A stretch of DNA of 64,000 bases from contig OZ244065.1 in the NCBI GenBank assembly GCA_965215505.1, positions 768,001 to 832,000 of the forward strand, in the 5' to 3' direction. How positions within the stretch are numbered: position 1 is the stretch's first letter; every line of letters starts with the position of its first letter. Origin of the DNA: Capsulimonadaceae bacterium. GTDB lineage: Bacteria > Armatimonadota > Armatimonadia > Armatimonadales > Capsulimonadaceae. Below the pieces are notes generated by a model. It was not told the DNA's origin and made no database searches. It saw nothing but the letters and a program-made list of their open reading frames with translations. Positions 1 to 46,945 of this stretch are shown piece by piece. A program made the translations under genes and the position numbers.

Positions 1-684
1 GGCTTGGAGCAGAGGGTTGATGATCTGGCCGAACGTCTTCTGGCTCTCGTACTTCTCAGACAGTTCCTCTTTGGGCTTCGCAAGCTCGCCGATGTAAGTC
101 GGCCCCCAGCCCTGATGCGCCTGGGCGGCCGTCTGGAAGTAGTCGCCGTAGACGGGGTCGAGGCGCAGGGCGGGCGCTTCGGCGTCCCACACCCAGGTCA
201 GCGGGTGGCCTTCAAAGACATACAAGCGGCCGCCAGGCGCGAGCAGGCGAGCGACGACGGCGGCCCAGCCGTCCATGTCGTGCAGCCAGTTGATCGCGCC
301 GCGTCCGGTGTAGACCAGGTCGGCGGTGCCGTCGAGGTGGTGCGGCGTATCTAAGATATCGCAGCAGAACCAGGTTGCAGGAGCTTTCAGGGCCTCAGAC
401 TTCCGGCGGGCGACGGCGATCATGTCCTCGCTGATGTCCACGCCGACCACCTCTTTTGCCCCCTTGTTCCAGAGCGAGAGCGTGTCCGTGCCGCCCGCGC
501 ATTGCAGGTGGATGGCCCGGCGGCACCACGAGCCGAGGTCGCGAAGGTACGGCTCCTCGGCCTCGCCGAAGTTCATGCCGCCGGCCCGCAAGAACTCGAT
601 GCGGTCCTCCGTACCGTCGGCGTAGTCGGCCGCCGCCTCGTTCCAGGCGGCCCGGTTGGACTGGTGCATCTCGCGGACGGTCAT
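1..684 (-). CDS. Class I SAM-dependent methyltransferase (3' end runs off the window)
   Basis: Not in the ORF track because it has no stop in the window. Manual minus-strand translation from ATG at 684 (GGAG upstream): MTVREMHQSNRAAWNEAA...AIHLQCAGGTDTLSL...VVGVDISEDMI...LLAPGGRLYVFEGHP, which has SAM motif I and post-I/III features. Confidence 0.85.
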   Translation of the reverse strand, partial: MTVREMHQSNRAAWNEAAADYADGTEDRIEFLRAGGMNFGEAEEPYLRDLGSWCRRAIHLQCAGGTDTLSLWNKGAKEVVGVDISEDMIAVARRKSEALKAPATWFCCDILDTPHHLDGTADLVYTGRGAINWLHDMDGWAAVVARLLAPGGRLYVFEGHPLTWVWDAEAPALRLDPVYGDYFQTAAQAHQGWGPTYIGELAKPKEELSEKYESQKTFGQIINPLLQA

Positions 685-40067: not shown

Positions 40068-41024
40068 TCAGGCGGCCTTCTCCGCCCGCATCGCCAGGAA
40101 CTTGTCACTGAACTCCTTGGCGTTGTACGAGGACCGGATGAACGGGCCGGAGGCGACGAACAGGAAGCCCATCGCCTCGCCGATCTCCTTGTATTCGGCG
40201 AAGATGTCCGGGTGGACATACTCCACCACGTCCAAATAGTTCTTGCCCGGCTTCAAGTACTGGCCGATCGTGACGGCGTCCACGTCATGCGCCTTCAGGT
40301 CTTCCATAAGGGCGACGACCTCCGCCTTCGTCTCGCCAAGGCCGACCATCAGGCCGCTCTTGGTGTAGATGCTCGGGTCGGCGGCCTTGACGTACCGCAA
40401 GAGCTGGAGGGAGCGGGCGTAGCGGGCCTGCGGGCGCACCTGCCGGTAGAGGCGCGGGACCGTCTCGATGTTGTGGTTGAAGACGTGCGGCTTCGCATCA
40501 ACGACGGTCTGGATGTTCGCTTTGTTCCCCAGAAAGTCGGGCGTCAGCACCTCGATGATCGTCTCGGGCAGCAGGCGGCGGAGCCACTGGATCGTCTCGG
40601 CGAAGTGGCGGGAGCCGCCGTCGGGCAGCTCGTCGCGGTTGACGCTGGTGACGACGGTGTGTTTCAGGCCCAGGATCGCTGCGCTCTCGGCGACGCGGCG
40701 CGGCTCGTCGGCGTCCAGCGCCCCACCCTTCCCGGTCTTGACCGCGCAGAAGCGGCAGGCGCGGGTGCAGGTGTCGCCCAGGATCATGAAGGTGGCAGTC
40801 TTCTTGGACCAGCACTCGCCGAGGTTCGGGCAGCGGGCCTCCTCGCAGACGGTCACCAGGCCGGACCGGCGCATCAGCCCTTCGACCTCCTCGATCCCCT
40901 GCCGCTTGGGCAGCTTGATCGTCAGCCACTCCGGGATGCGGCGGTTGAGGACCGGGCCGACCGTGCGCGCGGGCGGGGACGGGAGGCGGGAGGGGAGGAC
41001 ATCGAGTTGGATCAGTTCAGCCAT
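40068..41024 (-). CDS. lipA: Lipoyl synthase
   Basis: CEEARCPNLGEC and CTRACRFC clusters; NHNIETV, KSGLMVGLGE, RSSY motifs. Confidence 0.97.
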   Translation of the reverse strand: MAELIQLDVLPSRLPSPPARTVGPVLNRRIPEWLTIKLPKRQGIEEVEGLMRRSGLVTVCEEARCPNLGECWSKKTATFMILGDTCTRACRFCAVKTGKGGALDADEPRRVAESAAILGLKHTVVTSVNRDELPDGGSRHFAETIQWLRRLLPETIIEVLTPDFLGNKANIQTVVDAKPHVFNHNIETVPRLYRQVRPQARYARSLQLLRYVKAADPSIYTKSGLMVGLGETKAEVVALMEDLKAHDVDAVTIGQYLKPGKNYLDVVEYVHPDIFAEYKEIGEAMGFLFVASGPFIRSSYNAKEFSDKFLAMRAEKAA

Positions 41025-41046
41025 GGATTTGCACTTTCTGGCATTG

Positions 41047-41076
41047 ATTATAGCGTTTTCGGGGGCGCAAAGTCAA
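41047..41076 (-). promoter_or_regulatory. Sigma70-type promoter of lipA and probably the envelope superoperon
   Basis: Minus strand TTGACT-N18-TATAAT; the -35 contains the TGA stop of the upstream ATPase gene. Confidence 0.7.
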
Positions 41077-43127
41077 CGCGCTTCCTTTAACTGGACTGTT
41101 TCAGGCAACGATGAGGGCAATGCGCTCTTTTGCTTTTGCGCCGCAGAGCTGAGGAGCTGACGCGCTATTTCGCGCTCTTCTGCGGAGAGGCACAGCAAAA
41201 CGCGATCGTCATGGGTCTCCATGTACACAACAGCGGCTTCCATCAGGCGCAACGTCTGGCCGAACACCTCAACTTGTGCGGCTGCTTCCTGCCACTGCTT
41301 AAGCCAATCTTTTCTGACTGAGTCGCTGAATGCTGGGTGCAGCAAGGACGGGACTATCGTCATCAAGCCGACAGCCAAAGAAGAGGAAAGATCATGTTGC
41401 AGGCTGGTCTCCAGTAGATCGGCGATCTTATTTTTCCAGTCTCGCTTTTCATTGTGGGTACACAACAAAGCGACGGTGATGTCAGCCATGTAAGTCCCAG
41501 TCAGAATAAACCATCCCATCCACTTGTCAGGCTGCGCTGTGTCTGACATGTCAAAGACGCGTATCACTTTATTTAGCTGGTCTAGATCACAATCAATCAC
41601 CAACTTCCCTAGCCAAAGGCTACTCATATCATAAACTTTCCCTGGTTCCATAAATTCCAGGCGACCCTTCGCGGCTTGATCTCCCGCCGCGACGGCTTCT
41701 TCAAGTCGGTTAAGCTCCAACAAACACAGACTCATGCACATCCAATCATCGGCAGCACCGCGAATGGCCACTAATTCTTCCGCAATCCGAAGGGACATCC
41801 CGTAATTTTTGACACTGAAAGATGAGAGGAGATCGTTTTGACAGGCCGCGACGCGGGGATCATCGTTTTCACTCTCTAAAGTATCCAGCGCGTACTGCAC
41901 ATACTCGCGCTCTAAAGGTGTTCCAGTCTCAAGCAGCGATGAATAGTGCTGCCGTAGTTCAACCGATGTGTACCACAGCCTCAAGAAATCCACGAACAGC
42001 TTGATTGGGCCGCCGCGACTCTTTTTAATGTCTATGCACATCCGCATCAGTGGCTCGCGCAGTTCATAGTAGGACTCGCGCCCGACCGCCTCCGAGACTA
42101 CATAGCCCTTCGCCCGCAAGTCTTGGAGCTGACCGGAGGCCGTCTGCTGCGTGACGAAGCAGCGTTTGGCGATCTCCTTCACGGGAACCGCGCCGCGATG
42201 ATCGCAGAGGAAGTCCACGATTTTGCGCTGCTGGGGGGAAAGCCATTTCATTTTGGCCTGATAGTACGGCGTCAGCTCATCCAGCATGTGCATGAACGGG
42301 TCCACGAGTTCATCCAGGGCTTCGCGCGTTAGGAACTGGGAAAAGATGACGTAGACACGCGGGTTGCCGCCGGCCAGGTGATGGACGGCGCGGATGCGGG
42401 CACGTCCCATGGGGGCCTGGATAAAGGCGCAAAGGTCGCGCTTGTCTTCCAGATCAGCGATCTTCGTCAAGAGGGCCGTGGCATCATCTAACGAAAGGTC
42501 TTCGAGCAGGTGAATCGTGAAGAAGCCGTAGAAGGGAGAGGTACGACGCGAAACGTCTTTGAACAAACTCTGCGCCGTGGCGATAATGATCCAAAAAGGG
42601 TCTTCCTGGATGAATGAGCGCAGCCGCTTTTGGCCGACCTCCCCCATACCTTCGAACAGGTCATTTAGGTTTTCTGCCAGGACGAGCAAGGCGCGTTCCC
42701 CGACGTAGCCTTTGAGCACGGCGGCAGCGGTTTGTTCGGCTTCCGCCGCCGGAAGGCTGTACAGGGCCTCGATTTTTTCCGCCAACGCGGCATCTTTGTA
42801 TTCGGCCTGCAATGCCGTGAGGAGGCGGAGCAGGAGATCAAGGAATGAAGAGACACCCCATTCTTCTTCCCGCAGCCACGCAACGCGCAGGCGGTCACGC
42901 AAATCTTCTCGCCGACAAACGCGGTGATAGATCAGCGAAACCAGGTGTGTTTTGCCGATGCCGCGCGGCCCAATCAGCAGCGAGTAGTGTTTGGAAGGCG
43001 TCAGCGCACTTTCGGCGATGACTTCCACGACTTCCTGAGCGAGTTCTTCGCGCTGGACAAAAATATCTTCCAGCGTCTTGGCGCTCATCAGGCTGGGCGT
43101 GAAATAGGACAAAAAATCAGCCCTCAT
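41073..43127 (-). CDS. STAND-like P-loop ATPase with winged HTH and C-terminal TPR-like helical region
   Basis: Walker A GPRGIGKT; degenerate Walker B LVLAENL; AGGNPR (GxP); wHTH-like VKEIAKRCFVTQQTASGQLQDL..GYV; helical repeat C-terminus; low GC. Confidence 0.75.
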   Translation of the reverse strand: MRADFLSYFTPSLMSAKTLEDIFVQREELAQEVVEVIAESALTPSKHYSLLIGPRGIGKTHLVSLIYHRVCRREDLRDRLRVAWLREEEWGVSSFLDLLLRLLTALQAEYKDAALAEKIEALYSLPAAEAEQTAAAVLKGYVGERALLVLAENLNDLFEGMGEVGQKRLRSFIQEDPFWIIIATAQSLFKDVSRRTSPFYGFFTIHLLEDLSLDDATALLTKIADLEDKRDLCAFIQAPMGRARIRAVHHLAGGNPRVYVIFSQFLTREALDELVDPFMHMLDELTPYYQAKMKWLSPQQRKIVDFLCDHRGAVPVKEIAKRCFVTQQTASGQLQDLRAKGYVVSEAVGRESYYELREPLMRMCIDIKKSRGGPIKLFVDFLRLWYTSVELRQHYSSLLETGTPLEREYVQYALDTLESENDDPRVAACQNDLLSSFSVKNYGMSLRIAEELVAIRGAADDWMCMSLCLLELNRLEEAVAAGDQAAKGRLEFMEPGKVYDMSSLWLGKLVIDCDLDQLNKVIRVFDMSDTAQPDKWMGWFILTGTYMADITVALLCTHNEKRDWKNKIADLLETSLQHDLSSSLAVGLMTIVPSLLHPAFSDSVRKDWLKQWQEAAAQVEVFGQTLRLMEAAVVYMETHDDRVLLCLSAEEREIARQLLSSAAQKQKSALPSSLPETVQLKEAR

Positions 43128-44296
43128 TCGACGGCACCTCTTTGCAGCCGCCAGTAGCGCTGGATCAATGGGAAATAGAAGCGATAGTTGCCGTCAGTCT
43201 CCTGTGTCAGATAATGGTCACGCTCAAGCAGGGAGAGCAGAGCGCGTGTCTGTTCCTTATCGGCCGTGATAATTCGCGATTTAAGTCGGTTGAACACCTC
43301 CACGAATGGCATGGCGGCATCAGCGAATGCAAGGACATCCAAAACCGCCAGCGCCAGGGGGACCTTGTCCGCGCTATAGTAGGAGGAGAGACGGTCAATA
43401 TAGTGGCGAAGTTGCCAGCGATCCTGGGGGTCGGTTAATCCCCGGCTGATGATGGTTTCAACGGTCCCCACATCCGCAGTCCCTTTCGCGCTCTTGAGTT
43501 GCCTGACGACATGATGGATATAGAAGGGTATAAAATCCACACCTTGCGCGATGGCCTCAGCCACCGCCTCGGCATCTTTGGCCTCGATCTTAGTCCCATG
43601 CAGCAGGCGGCGCGCGAGTTCGCTGGCATCTTCGGGAGCCAGGGGCGGCACCTCCTCGACATACATATCGTTGATAGGGGCATTGCTGTACCCTGCCGCC
43701 CGCAGGGCTGTGAGAACATGATGCAGGCCGATCGAGCCTGTGTAGACCATCCGCAGGCGTGGGTGCATCTGACGTAGGGCACGCAGCGTGTTCAGAATCT
43801 CCATCGCGACGTTTTCGCCGTTTCCCTTCTTGATGTTGTCCAGCATCATGGGGATCTCGTCCCATTGAAAGATCAGCATGGCTTCTTGCTCTTCCATGAG
43901 GTCCGCAATGATGCTGGTTAGCAGATCTTTCCAGAAGGGGGCAGCGACTTCAGGGAACTTGACAAAGTTCTCGAACTCCGCGCCCTTCAACTCGGATAGG
44001 AATTTCCGTGTTCGGGTTGTGTTCCGCTTTTTCGTGCTGAGAAACGCCTCGACATCGGCGAAGACGAGTTCGGCAAACTCCAGCGGCGTGTGTATATCCT
44101 CTAAATCGTGATAAACAAGCAGTTTTCCGGGGCGCGCTTCAGCCCGCATCTTTTTCAGAATAGAAGTCTTTCCAATCCGCCTCTCGGAAGTCAACACCAG
44201 ACTTTGGACTTCCAACACGTCCCATAAGGATGCGATCAAGTCATCGCGGCCGATAATATCAGATGCTGCGATTTCGCCGCCAGGATTAGCTTGCAT
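43124..44296 (-). CDS. STAND-like AAA/P-loop ATPase (effector-less)
   Basis: IIGRDD, Walker A SERRIGKTS, Walker B IFQWDEIP, VYTGSIGL, DFIPFYI, C-terminal wHTH-like LLERDHYL..YRF; ATG 44296 with AGGAG SD; ATGA overlap with the partner gene. Confidence 0.8.
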   Translation of the reverse strand: MQANPGGEIAASDIIGRDDLIASLWDVLEVQSLVLTSERRIGKTSILKKMRAEARPGKLLVYHDLEDIHTPLEFAELVFADVEAFLSTKKRNTTRTRKFLSELKGAEFENFVKFPEVAAPFWKDLLTSIIADLMEEQEAMLIFQWDEIPMMLDNIKKGNGENVAMEILNTLRALRQMHPRLRMVYTGSIGLHHVLTALRAAGYSNAPINDMYVEEVPPLAPEDASELARRLLHGTKIEAKDAEAVAEAIAQGVDFIPFYIHHVVRQLKSAKGTADVGTVETIISRGLTDPQDRWQLRHYIDRLSSYYSADKVPLALAVLDVLAFADAAMPFVEVFNRLKSRIITADKEQTRALLSLLERDHYLTQETDGNYRFYFPLIQRYWRLQRGAVE

Positions 44297-44317
44297 AGTT
44301 TTATCTCCTACAACCCT

Positions 44318-44345
44318 ATTATACACCAAAATTGATGTACGTCAA
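44318..44345 (-). promoter_or_regulatory. Sigma70-type promoter of the ATPase pair
   Basis: Minus strand TTGACG-N16-TATAAT, 21 nt upstream of the ATG. Confidence 0.65.
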
Positions 44346-44431
44346 TATTAACTTATGTCACCCAAGAGAATTATCCCCTACTTGGTTTCTGCAACGAACG
44401 AGCTTCTACGGCTAAAAACGTCCGCGTTCGG

Positions 44432-44460
44432 TTGACAAGGTGGCCTTCATCACTTATAAT
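44432..44460 (+). promoter_or_regulatory. Perfect-consensus sigma70 promoter of hppA
   Basis: TTGACA (44432-44437)-N17-TATAAT (44455-44460); TAAGGAG SD at 44502. Confidence 0.85.
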
Positions 44461-44512
44461 AGCAACAAGAACAAAATGAGCCTGGCCGACGGTGGCCGAG
44501 GTAAGGAGTGCT

Positions 44513-46945
44513 GTGTTGTCCAAGAAAGTCCGGCGGACGCGGCCGATGCTGAGTTTCTTTCCCTTGGCGGCGGCCCTGCTGCTGGGGAGCGCCCGCGCCT
44601 CGTATGCGGGCGGCGAGGGGGTGATACTCCCCGCCTTCACCACGCCGGTGTACGGCGTCCTGACGTTCGTACTCCTGACCTCCCTCATCGCCCTGGCCTA
44701 CGGCTTCGTCCTGCGGTCCCAGGTGAGCCGCCTGTCGCCCGGCACGCCGGCCATGCAGGAGGTTGGCGCGGCGATTCGGTCGGGCGCGCTGGCCTACCTC
44801 GCCAAGCAGGTCCGGACGATGCTGCCGCTGGTGGCGATATTGGCCGTACTGCTCGTCTTTCTGTATTACGGCCAGTACGGGCTGACACTGGCCCTGAGCA
44901 TCGCCGCCGCCTTCCTGGCGGGCGTCGTGCTCTCCTACACGGCGGGCTATGTCGGCATGGGCATGGCGGTGATCGGCAACCAGCGGACGGCCAACCAAGC
45001 GCTCACGACCTACAAGGGCGCGCTGGAGACGGCCTTCAAAAGCGGGGCGGTGGCCGGCATGATGACGGTCGGCCTGGGCCTGCTGGGCGCGACGGTGATC
45101 TTCCTCATCTTCCGCAGCGACGCCATGAAGGTGCTGATCGGCTTCGGGTTCGGCGGCAGCCTGGCTGCCCTGTTCATGCGCGTCGGCGGCGGCATCTTCA
45201 CCAAGTCGGCGGACGTCGGCGCGGACCTTGTGGGCAAAGTGGAGCAGTCCATCCCGGAGGACGACCCGCGCAACGCAGCGACCATCGCCGACAACGTCGG
45301 GGACAACGTGGGCGACTGCGCGGGCATGGCCGCCGACGTGTTCGAGTCGTACCTGGTTACGCTCGTCGCCGCCCTGCTGCTGGGGGCGGCGGTCGGGGCA
45401 CGCACCGGCAACCCGGCCTTCACACTGCCCTTGATCCTGTTCCCCCTGGTCATCCACGGCGTCGGCATCCTCGCCTCGGTCGTGGGCGTCGCCTCCCTGC
45501 GCGGCAAGGAGGACATGAGCCTTGACCCCCTCGTGCCCATCAACCGGGGCTTCTGGCTGACCGGGGCCATCGCGACGGCCCTGCTGGTCGGCGCGGCGTT
45601 TCTCCTGCCGGGGCTGCGGGACGGCATTACAGTGGACGGGCGGACCTATGGCCCCGTCTATTTCATCGCCGCCACAGTGATCGGCGTCATCCTGGCCCTG
45701 GTCATCGGCAAGCAGACCGAGTACTTTACCGGTTCGGACAAGCGGCCCGTCAACGAAGTCGCGCACGCCTCACAGACCGGGGCGGCGACCCTGATCCTCT
45801 CGGGCTTTTCCCTTGGCCTTGAAAGCGCGGCGTGGAGCGCCGCCGTGATTGTCGCCGCCCTGTTCTCCATCGTGCTGCTGTTCGGCGGCAGCGCCCTCCT
45901 GTCGGCCTACGGCATCGCGCTGGCCGGGCTGGGGCTGCTGACCACGACGGGCTATGTCCTGGCGATGGACACCTTCGGCCCGATTTCGGATAACGCCCAG
46001 GGCATCTTCGAGATGTCCGGCGCGGCCCGCGAGCAGCATTCAGGGCGCAACGGGAGCGCGCCGACGGCCATGACGGGCGACAAGGTGGTTTCCAAGCTCG
46101 ACTCGGCGGGGAACACGACCAAGGCCCTGACCAAAGGCTTCGCCATCGCGACCGCCGTGATCGCCGCCGTGGCCCTCTTTCAAGGCTTCGTCTCCGACGC
46201 GGGCCTGACGCCCGCCGACTTCAGCCTGGTGCAGCCGCGCGTCTTCATCGGCCTGCTCATCGGCGGCGCGGCCCCGTTCCTGTTCTGCTCGTTCGCCATC
46301 AATGCCGTCTCGCGGGCGGCTTTTCAGCTCGTGGAGGAGGTCCGGAGGCAGTTCCGCGACATCCCCGGCATCATGGAAGGCACGGGGAAGCCCGACTACG
46401 CCCGGTGCGTCGAGATCGCCACGGCGGCGGCGCAGAAGGAGCTGCTGGGGCCGGGCATCCTCGCCATCTGCCTGCCCATCCTGGTCGGCTTCGGCCTGGG
46501 CGCGGCGGCCCTCGGCGGCTACCTCGCCGGGGCCATCGTGACGGGGCAGCTCATGGCGGTCCTGCTGGCGAACTCCGGGGGCGCGTGGGACAATGCCAAG
46601 AAGAAAATCGAAGACGGGATGTTCGGCGGTAAAGGTGGCGACCAGCACAAGGCCAGCGTCATCGGCGACACGGTGGGCGATCCGTTCAAGGACACGGCGG
46701 GGCCGGCCCTAAACCCGCTGATCAAGGTGATGAACCTGGTCGGCGTCCTGATCGCGGGCGTCGTCGTCAGCACGGCGGGGAACGGCCTGGTCCGGGGCAT
46801 CGTCGTGGTCGTCATGGCCGCGCTGCTGGCGGGCGCGATCCTGTTCTCCAAGCGCGGTGGCCTGGCCGACATGGCGGACGTCGAGGCCGAGGGGGACGGG
46901 CCGGAGCAGGTACAAAAGCAGGAGCAGACGTCTTCGCGGCGGTGA
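44513..46945 (+). CDS. hppA: Membrane-bound H+-translocating pyrophosphatase, predicted K+-independent
   Basis: GGGIFTKSADVGADLVGKVE, PEDDPRN, DNVGDNVGDCAGM, GDTVGDPFKDTAGP motifs; GNTTK carries Lys at the K+-dependence position. Confidence 0.95.
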   Translation: MLSKKVRRTRPMLSFFPLAAALLLGSARASYAGGEGVILPAFTTPVYGVLTFVLLTSLIALAYGFVLRSQVSRLSPGTPAMQEVGAAIRSGALAYLAKQVRTMLPLVAILAVLLVFLYYGQYGLTLALSIAAAFLAGVVLSYTAGYVGMGMAVIGNQRTANQALTTYKGALETAFKSGAVAGMMTVGLGLLGATVIFLIFRSDAMKVLIGFGFGGSLAALFMRVGGGIFTKSADVGADLVGKVEQSIPEDDPRNAATIADNVGDNVGDCAGMAADVFESYLVTLVAALLLGAAVGARTGNPAFTLPLILFPLVIHGVGILASVVGVASLRGKEDMSLDPLVPINRGFWLTGAIATALLVGAAFLLPGLRDGITVDGRTYGPVYFIAATVIGVILALVIGKQTEYFTGSDKRPVNEVAHASQTGAATLILSGFSLGLESAAWSAAVIVAALFSIVLLFGGSALLSAYGIALAGLGLLTTTGYVLAMDTFGPISDNAQGIFEMSGAAREQHSGRNGSAPTAMTGDKVVSKLDSAGNTTKALTKGFAIATAVIAAVALFQGFVSDAGLTPADFSLVQPRVFIGLLIGGAAPFLFCSFAINAVSRAAFQLVEEVRRQFRDIPGIMEGTGKPDYARCVEIATAAAQKELLGPGILAICLPILVGFGLGAAALGGYLAGAIVTGQLMAVLLANSGGAWDNAKKKIEDGMFGGKGGDQHKASVIGDTVGDPFKDTAGPALNPLIKVMNLVGVLIAGVVVSTAGNGLVRGIVVVVMAALLAGAILFSKRGGLADMADVEAEGDGPEQVQKQEQTSSRR

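Follow-up and report, generated by a model that had tools for sequence, protein, structure and literature searches.

What a pair of low-GC genes is doing between two housekeeping genes of a Capsulimonadaceae bacterium, and how it came to be there, is the question raised by this locus. The genes, here called g1 and g2, lie in a 64,000 nt stretch of contig OZ244065.1 (assembly GCA_965215505.1, positions 768,001–832,000; hereafter the window). They are two minus-strand open reading frames (ORFs) in the same direction that together fill positions 41073–44296, flanked on the left by the lipoyl synthase gene lipA (TIGR00510, 392 bits against an NCBIfam cut-off of 310) and on the right by the membrane pyrophosphatase gene hppA (TIGR01104, 682 bits, cut-off 652). 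A sequence-only reading of the window had described them as co-oriented STAND-like ATPase genes with an ATGA overlap, a promoter of their own and a guanine–cytosine (GC) content below that of the flanks, and had proposed an uncharacterised defence or conflict system. What it had observed at the locus was correct apart from the start of g1, since the ORFs, overlap (43124–43127), promoter (11/12 positions at 44345–44318), GC content (0.48–0.59 over 41000–44499, as against 0.62–0.75 in the flanks) and flanking genes were all confirmed. Our best explanation is that g1 and g2 make up a self-regulated, obligately paired sensor cassette of two ORC/STAND-type ATPases, likely of immune or conflict type, a reading to which we give an even chance of being right.

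Pairing and distribution of the cassette

Loci were collected by a pattern scan of one genome per species, which confirmed the family in at least 220 species genomes and from which 80 loci were fetched. The pair was kept, g1 then g2, in 78 of the 78 loci that could be evaluated, with g2 on the same strand at most 400 nt behind g1 in 77 and 512 nt behind it in one; the contigs of the other two end before g2. The same order was found in those of six relatives' loci that had room for both genes. Clustering of the 912 ORFs of the 80 loci yielded no third conserved gene, and no other ORF family occurred in more than seven loci. The cassette loci came from Cyanobacteria, Planctomycetota, Verrucomicrobiota, Acidobacteriota, Proteobacteria and others, and an exhaustive profile search returned 923 clusters (50 % identity) at E <= 1e-30 and 4,250 at E <= 0.001. 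The gap between the genes, usually 0–90 nt, was 278–512 nt in five Microcoleus loci (L027, L030, L033, L036 and L041).

A patchy distribution, which the sequence-only reading had put forward as a check, was borne out among relatives: a g1 homologue was present in only 6/40, and within the genus in 2/23, at 48–50 % identity and at other genome positions. Vertical syntenic inheritance, homologues occurring singly and membership of a known non-defence family, each of which that reading had named as speaking against its proposal, were not found. These data support a self-contained, obligately paired and horizontally acquired module. In one Capsulimonadaceae metagenome-assembled genome (L047:7420–15116) the cassette has a serine integrase (phrog_95, E 3e-81) and an excisionase-like helix-turn-helix protein on one side, with a terminase large subunit (phrog_2, E 5.5e-35) on the other, and we read that copy as cargo of a prophage-like element.

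A clean insertion between two promoters

The gene lipA was found in 25 of the 25 genomes searched, and the lipA loci of eleven relatives were surveyed with 1.5 kb of flank each. Neither g1 nor g2 stood beside lipA within those flanks in any of the eleven, and in the two closest relatives (lipA identity 96 and 94 %) the site is empty: hppA adjoins lipA and the two promoters stand back to back. Aligned to empty sites (L010 and L011), the homology of the window breaks off at 41081 and picks up again at 44421; approximately 3.34 kb has therefore taken the place of a spacer of about 20 nt. The sole sequence shared at the joints was a CGCG-type microhomology. Neither direct nor inverted terminal repeats were found to bound the insert, no recombinase or tRNA was present at it and no Rfam family was detected in 40800–44700. 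The final codons and stop of g2 extend into host sequence, such that its TGA (41073–41075) falls inside the −35 box of lipA. The block is thus a clean, recent insertion of a horizontally acquired cassette. No terminator-like site of note was found after g2 on its strand, and cassette transcripts may for that reason run into lipA; read-through transcription may reach both lipA and tamB, a TamB-like protein being encoded further left of lipA.

Maintenance of the insertion is supported by contigs from two other public sequencing runs, which cover both of its junctions at approximately 99.4 % identity; in four public runs no contig joined across the empty site. The 24 listed coding differences between these populations were split evenly, 12 synonymous and 12 non-synonymous. 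In run X6, two high-depth contigs end inside g1, at 43380 and 43378, with a 3 nt overlap, and the loose ends form inverted repeats of one another, which fits an insertion element with a 3 bp target duplication. If this break is indeed an insertion element, loss of g1 is tolerated in that population.

Two ATPases of ORC/STAND type

The preferred start of g1 is the ATG at 44296, which lies 7 nt behind AGGAGA and is where all homologues begin (MxANPGG), rather than the TTG at 44329 that opens the longest ORF. Both motifs singled out by the sequence-only reading, SERRIGKTS (residues 37–45, in a Walker A motif at 36–45, nt 44162–44191) and the Walker B WDE (145–147, nt 43856–43864), were invariant among 36 aligned homologues, in company with G7, G16-R17, E38-R39-R40-x-G42-K43-T44, D146-E147 and T186-G187-S188-x-G190-L191-H192. 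With canonical Walker A and Walker B motifs, g1 looks like an active ATPase. It had been taken for a bare ATPase, a description that does not fit the AlphaFold (AF2) model built from the 36-row alignment (predicted local distance difference test score, pLDDT, 87.9), in which an AAA+ core and lid are followed by a C-terminal winged helix. The top Foldseek matches of this model in the PDB were 2qen (TMq 0.69) and 2fna (TMq 0.66), followed by ORC/Cdc6 and NB-ARC chains. Profile searches gave less: Pfam returned AAA_14, AAA_16 and AAA_22 only, all below cut-off, PF01637 gave no match at E <= 1, and there was no match in PADLOC or NCBIfam; the ESM Atlas neighbours of g1 include ATPase_2 and AAA_35 clusters. 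No PHROGs family matched g1 or g2 at E <= 1e-5, and the two proteins showed no pairwise sequence similarity to each other (best E 1.0). The third helix of the g1 winged helix is hydrophobic, and no DNA-binding profile matched this domain.

In g2 the Walker A motif is intact as had been claimed (GPRGIGKT, 53–60), with G53, R55, G56, G58 and K59 invariant in 30 sequences. Its Walker B had been called degenerate. The acid pair is absent, as LVLAEN at 147–153 (hhhh-A-E-N; a strand at 146–151 and then E152-N153) departs from the hhhhD[DE] pattern; E152-N153 is, however, invariant in all 30 aligned relatives, so this form of the motif is a family trait and not decay. With E-N in place of the acid pair, g2 would bind nucleoside triphosphate (NTP) and hydrolyse it slowly. 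The suggestion of an active partner joined to a partly inactive one agrees with this, one protein having a canonical Walker B and the other lacking the usual acid pair. A further motif, the STAND GxP, reportedly defined by Leipe and colleagues in 2004, had also been noted in g2. The window's copy reads GGNP at 253–256, but in most relatives the sequence is GGNH; G253, G254 and N255 are conserved and the proline is not.

The AF2 model of g2 (pLDDT 78.1) shows, in order, an NTPase, a helical domain, a winged helix-turn-helix (wHTH), a helical-repeat arm and a C-terminal helical domain, and so has the STAND succession of NTPase, helical domain, winged helix and repeat sensor. The wHTH that the sequence-only reading had seen was confirmed by a Pfam MarR_2 match at 296–347 (34.5 bits, cut-off 27); an ArsR/SmtB NCBIfam model also matched it below cut-off (39.7 bits, cut-off 55), and AAA_16 matched g2 below cut-off. 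In the model the wHTH comprises helices at 298–308, 316–322 and 327–339 followed by a hairpin. The tail had been called TPR-like: it is homologous to the true TPR arrays of relatives, but no TPR Pfam model matched it in the window's copy. Identity over the first ~400 residues is 50–60 % among the 30 aligned relatives and the C terminus carries a conserved block (W608, W612, R642, L644-L645, E650-x-R652), whilst on this conserved core the number of TPRs varies widely (total length 584–1076 aa). The nearest relatives, P0004 and P0005 (73–74 % identity), share a much reduced arm without a recognisable TPR profile, and as they have the same short architecture the short arm of g2 is a lineage trait. 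Foldseek ranked ORC/Cdc6 structures first (best 7jgr_G, E 1.6e-7; 2qby_A, TMt 0.57), with the STAND-TPR protein 6mfv, Avs3, Apaf-1 and SAMD9 lower down. The models thus support ORC/STAND-type folds for both proteins. Two codons of the window's g2 are unusual: codon 155 (nt 42665) encodes N in place of a D that hardly varies in the family, and codon 327 (nt 42147), in the recognition helix, encodes Q where most relatives have H; contigs of X5 and X6 carry D155, and X4 contigs carry H327.

A conserved operator array at the cassette promoter

The 3.7 kb region holds seven promoter-like sites where 1.7 were expected, among them the near-consensus promoter of g1. Across phyla this promoter is overlain by a 14 bp palindrome, TTGAYGTAYRTCAA, that forms arrays at a 16 bp phase; nearly every locus has one to four copies near TTGACGTACGTCAA or TTAACGTACGTTAA just upstream of g1. 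The upstream regions of g1 (15,000 nt in all) held 78 copies of its 10 nt core RAYRTAYRTY (53/75 loci), as against 25 in the other 1.127 Mb; the 14-mer with up to three mismatches was found 106 times in 12,320 nt (60/77 loci), as against 226 times in 1.143 Mb elsewhere. When up to two mismatches were allowed, the 250 nt ahead of g1 held 57 sites and the rest of the loci 12. Neighbouring sites were exactly 16 bp apart in 39 of 46 cases and 32 bp apart in three more. The exact palindrome occurs once in the window and once in the 6.18 Mb genome, at the cassette promoter. Five other places in the genome differ from it at a single position: the promoter of a second cassette, three sites inside long ORFs and one just past the end of an ORF; a reversed control pattern occurred at one place. 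In the window the array comprises a central operator, an upstream operator-like site and a downstream half-site, and the fusion of a half-site with TATAAT was also seen at other loci. This promoter-restricted, conserved operator array is new here. A further palindrome, GTGTCTGACATGTCAAAGAC, at 41539–41558 in g2, holds TGACATGTCA and resembles two operator half-sites with a shorter centre; it is probably there by chance.

The sequence-only reading had offered the wHTH of g2 as a possible output of the system. The domain looks more like a reader of the operators on the cassette's own promoter, in which case the cassette would be autorepressed. We assign this role to g2 because the winged helix of g1 has a hydrophobic third helix and lacks a DNA-binding profile match. 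Loci without the canonical core carry repeated variants of their own, of the TTGACATA, TTGACTTATG and AACAYRTGTT types, and the sequence of the third wHTH helix (TxQTASSQL) tends to vary along with the operator: the ACGTA core was present in 43 loci with the canonical helix and absent in two, as compared to 10 with and six without for non-canonical helices (Fisher's p = 0.003). As the p value is not corrected for relatedness, this covariation is only suggestive.

Proposed function and alternatives

A mechanism consistent with these features would run as follows. The receptor would be g2, binding NTP through its intact P-loop and probably hydrolysing it poorly because E-N replaces the acid pair, with the TPR-derived arm, variable between relatives, as the likely ligand sensor. 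Its MarR-type winged helix would read the 14 bp palindromes spaced at a 16 bp phase over the −35 and −10 boxes, so that the cassette would repress itself. The catalytically competent AAA+ partner would be g1, linked to g2 by translational coupling, and capture of a ligand by g2 may alter its oligomeric or DNA-bound state and thereby engage g1. Both the heteromer and the defence role are inferred. The immune interpretation is plausible but unproven, and we put the probability of a defence or conflict role slightly below even. It has indirect support in the patchy, horizontal spread across many phyla, in an arm that varies while the core stays constant, in one fusion each to a TIR_2 and a SAV_2336 N-terminal domain, and in the prophage-like setting of the L047 copy.

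Several observations weigh against an immune role. No named defence system in PADLOC matched the cassette, the only matches of g2 being winged helices of Csa3 or CasR type, and Pfam revealed no nuclease, TIR, SIR2 or other effector domain in the window's copy; on both points the sequence-only reading had said the same. The enrichment near defence genes that it had put forward as a check was not seen. Neighbours were mostly housekeeping genes; 7 of the 149 neighbouring proteins from 38 loci matched PADLOC at E <= 1e-10, several of them a transposon TnpB, a ribosomal RNA methyltransferase and a TPR protein, and a plausible defence neighbour stood at approximately 3/38 loci, which is a count rather than a formal test of enrichment. 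Among the neighbours Pfam also identified Uma2 nucleases, a MazE and a PLD-type protein. Searches of 50,697 phage records and of IMG/VR viral contigs returned no homologue, and 72,556 plasmids gave only two weak matches of 24–26 % identity. The fusions that speak for a conflict role are single cases: one g1 homologue among the 120 matches listed (P0149) has a C-terminal TIR_2 (E 3e-22), and one of 150 representatives (P0302) has a SAV_2336 N-terminal domain (477 aa) ahead of g1 (445.7 bits, cut-off 200). A search for longer, fused forms of g1 (684–2000 aa) returned none, which is weak evidence. The SAV_2336 N-terminal domain of P0302 has a DESVS motif resembling a vWA MIDAS and is probably the vWA component of MoxR–vWA ternary conflict systems; a literature search on this domain gave only an unrelated paper. 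Other points bear on the cassette reading itself: operator binding by g2 rather than g1 is suggested by domain type and the uncorrected covariation, the conservation of the operator could partly reflect the −35 and −10 consensus beneath it, and the window's own g2 could be a weakened copy, with most TPRs lost and N155. In the excerpts available of a recent STAND survey (PMC13581612), defence association is judged by effector content or defence context; the g1–g2 clade would probably not be called defence-associated by those criteria.

Three other readings would account for part of the evidence. An ordinary ligand-responsive transcription-factor pair, in which a STAND regulator like MalT, GutR or AfsR senses a metabolite or stress with the help of a second ATPase and has no part in defence, is unlikely. 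The architecture of ATPase, TPR and DNA-binding domain does parallel such regulators, which the available excerpts of the same Nature 2026 survey (PMC13581612) name as non-immune clades, and sequence-specific operators on a promoter together with housekeeping neighbourhoods would suit it. Yet no conserved target gene lies beside g1–g2, the host genome has its sole exact operator at the cassette's own promoter, the spread of the family is patchy and horizontal, a TIR fusion exists, and a regulator of itself alone has no evident use. In a second reading, two relatives of ORC-like initiators beside an iteron-like phased array, an arrangement like that of archaeal orc1/cdc6 and its origin, would be a selfish maintenance or replication module, the relic or addiction element of an integrated replicon. 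DNA-bound archaeal Orc1/Cdc6 are among the top fold matches of both proteins, the genes have the repeats immediately upstream, the cassette moves with no recombinase of its own and one copy sits in a prophage-like element. We nonetheless regard this as very improbable, as the repeats sit on the −35 and −10 boxes and do not flank an unwinding element, variable TPR sensors are foreign to initiators, the plasmid, phage and IMG/VR collections searched are essentially free of the family, no other replicon genes are alongside, and the X6 break, if an insertion element, means that g1 loss is tolerated, which argues against an essential antidote. A classical type II toxin–antitoxin system was dropped: the proteins are far too large, and the X6 contig break would mean that loss of g1 is tolerated.

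It is just as improbable, in our estimate, that the cassette is a decaying passenger without present function in this genome. Such a passenger would explain why the window's g2 lacks recognisable TPR repeats and has N at the nearly invariant D155, why its stop codon was reshaped by the junction with host DNA, and why non-synonymous differences equal synonymous ones among those listed between populations. Against this, both frames are open with all other invariant residues intact, the short arm is shared with P0004 and P0005, promoter, operator and Shine–Dalgarno site are intact, and the 12:12 split is well below the roughly 3:1 expected without constraint. Within the immune or conflict-type reading of the sensor cassette, a more specific form is a new kind of effector-less immune switch, resembling an origin-recognition machine in build, in which g2 polymerises on the 16 bp-phased palindromes of its own promoter and capture of an invader protein by the TPR arm converts the repressor filament into an active, ORC-like g1–g2 ATPase assembly. 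This assembly would act directly on DNA: it would load on the invader, silence it or block its replication, with no release of a nuclease or NADase. We rate it a long shot.

Were the cassette an immune sensor, it would represent a widespread family (the 923 clusters and at least 220 species genomes above) of paired ORC/STAND-type ATPases with no classical effector and a portable promoter–operator that is nearly constant across phyla. It would then make testable how effector-less NLR-like proteins deliver an output, and how potentially harmful modules stay silent after horizontal transfer. The operator and winged helix, with their natural specificity variants, are a ready set of orthogonal repressor–operator parts. 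Should the cassette be only a self-regulating regulator or a relic, it is a tidy case of clean insertion between two promoters.

Relation to known systems

No published description of the g1–g2 pair or its operator was found in full-text literature, including the available excerpts of PMC7159879, PMC13581612 and PMC8195603; supplements could list the clade. In print, the closest idea is that of the nSTAND2 operon, which Kaur, Iyer, Burroughs and Aravind described (eLife 2021, PMC8195603), a mobile operon that likewise has two adjacent genes for STAND-type NTPases. As described in the excerpts available, these proteins are proposed to form a hetero-multimer in which one partner is active, and the inactive partner has no P-loop and carries GT4 or HEPN effectors. 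By contrast, the P-loop GxxGxGKT is retained in g2, which has a wHTH, TPRs and a C-terminal domain and neither GT4 nor HEPN. The nSTAND2 alignment rows in those excerpts, compared by eye, lack the ERRxGKT, TGSIGLH and GPRGIGKT motifs of g1 and g2, and no operators are described there.

Avs/AVAST, bNACHT and NLR-like receptors resemble the cassette in the ORC/STAND-type NTPase, winged helix and variable TPR-type arm of g2 and in their horizontal, patchy distribution, and the Foldseek matches of the pair include Avs3, Apaf-1, NRC proteins and the STAND-TPR protein 6mfv. Avs and bNACHT are, however, single genes with effectors, whereas the cassette has two genes, no N-terminal effector and no PADLOC match. 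Unlike in Avs, the winged helix of g2 is of MarR type and apparently tied to conserved operators as their reader, the Walker B is E-N and there is no defence-island context. The archaeal ATPases of PF01637 (2qen, PABY2304; 2fna, SSO1545) share the fold of g1, with AAA+ core, lid and winged helix, but g1 has no match to the profile, and neither a function nor a partner has been assigned to 2qen and 2fna. At the level of fold, archaeal Orc1/Cdc6 on origin DNA (2qby, 2v1u) agree with both g1 and g2, and they too have repeats adjacent to the gene and a winged helix of the kind that would read DNA in the cassette; the sites of the cassette differ in being promoter-embedded 14 bp palindromes, and g2 in having a TPR arm. 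MalT, GutR and AfsR likewise combine an NTPase, a repeat sensor and DNA binding in one protein. Their DNA-binding domains are of LuxR or SARP type, and they control regulons, whereas the only target found for the cassette is its own promoter.

Coordinates and a second cassette

Table 1. Features of the cassette and its junctions, in window coordinates
Feature	Position	Strand	Basis
Inserted low-GC block, ~3.34 kb, between divergent lipA and hppA promoters	41082..44420	.	empty-site alignment, GC
Host lipA promoter TTGACT-N18-TATAAT; conserved in empty sites	41047..41076	-	promoter scan, empty-site alignment
g2, predicted 684 aa ORC/STAND-like NTPase, ATG 43127 to TGA 41073-41075	41073..43127	-	ORF, alignment, AF2, Foldseek
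Parts of g2 (residues): Walker A 53-60; Walker-B-like 147-153; winged helix 296-356; TPR-derived helical arm ~400-600; conserved C-terminal domain ~602-669			
Predicted g2 recognition helix, residues 326-339 (TQQTASGQL...), third wHTH helix, highly conserved	42111..42152	-	model, alignment
ATGA overlap, g1 stop/g2 start (translational coupling)	43124..43127	-	ORF coordinates
g1, predicted 390 aa AAA+ ATPase: archaeal-ATPase/ORC-like core, lid, C-terminal winged helix	43124..44296	-	alignment, AF2, Foldseek
Shine-Dalgarno AGGAGA of g1	44304..44309	-	sequence
Downstream half-site TTGGTGTA fused to -10 box, 16 bp in phase, 4 mismatches/14 nt	44316..44329	.	sequence
Cassette promoter TTGACG-N16-TATAAT, near-consensus	44318..44345	-	11/12 positions
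Central operator, exact family palindrome TTGACGTACATCAA, over -35 box	44332..44345	.	pattern match
Upstream operator-like site GTGACATAAGTTAA, 16 bp out from central, 3 mismatches	44348..44361	.	pattern match
Host hppA promoter TTGACA-N17-TATAAT, marks right flank	44432..44460	+	promoter scan, empty-site alignment

The same genome holds a second, distant cassette of the family (G000:C1:3184267-3186704; loci L104 and L108). Its g1' is 28 % identical to g1 and overlaps g2' by 8 nt; g2' (859 aa, 31 % identical to g2) carries AAA_16, MarR_2 and many TPRs. An operator variant, TTGTCGTATATCAA, lies approximately 40 nt upstream. This points to two orthogonal systems in the same cell.

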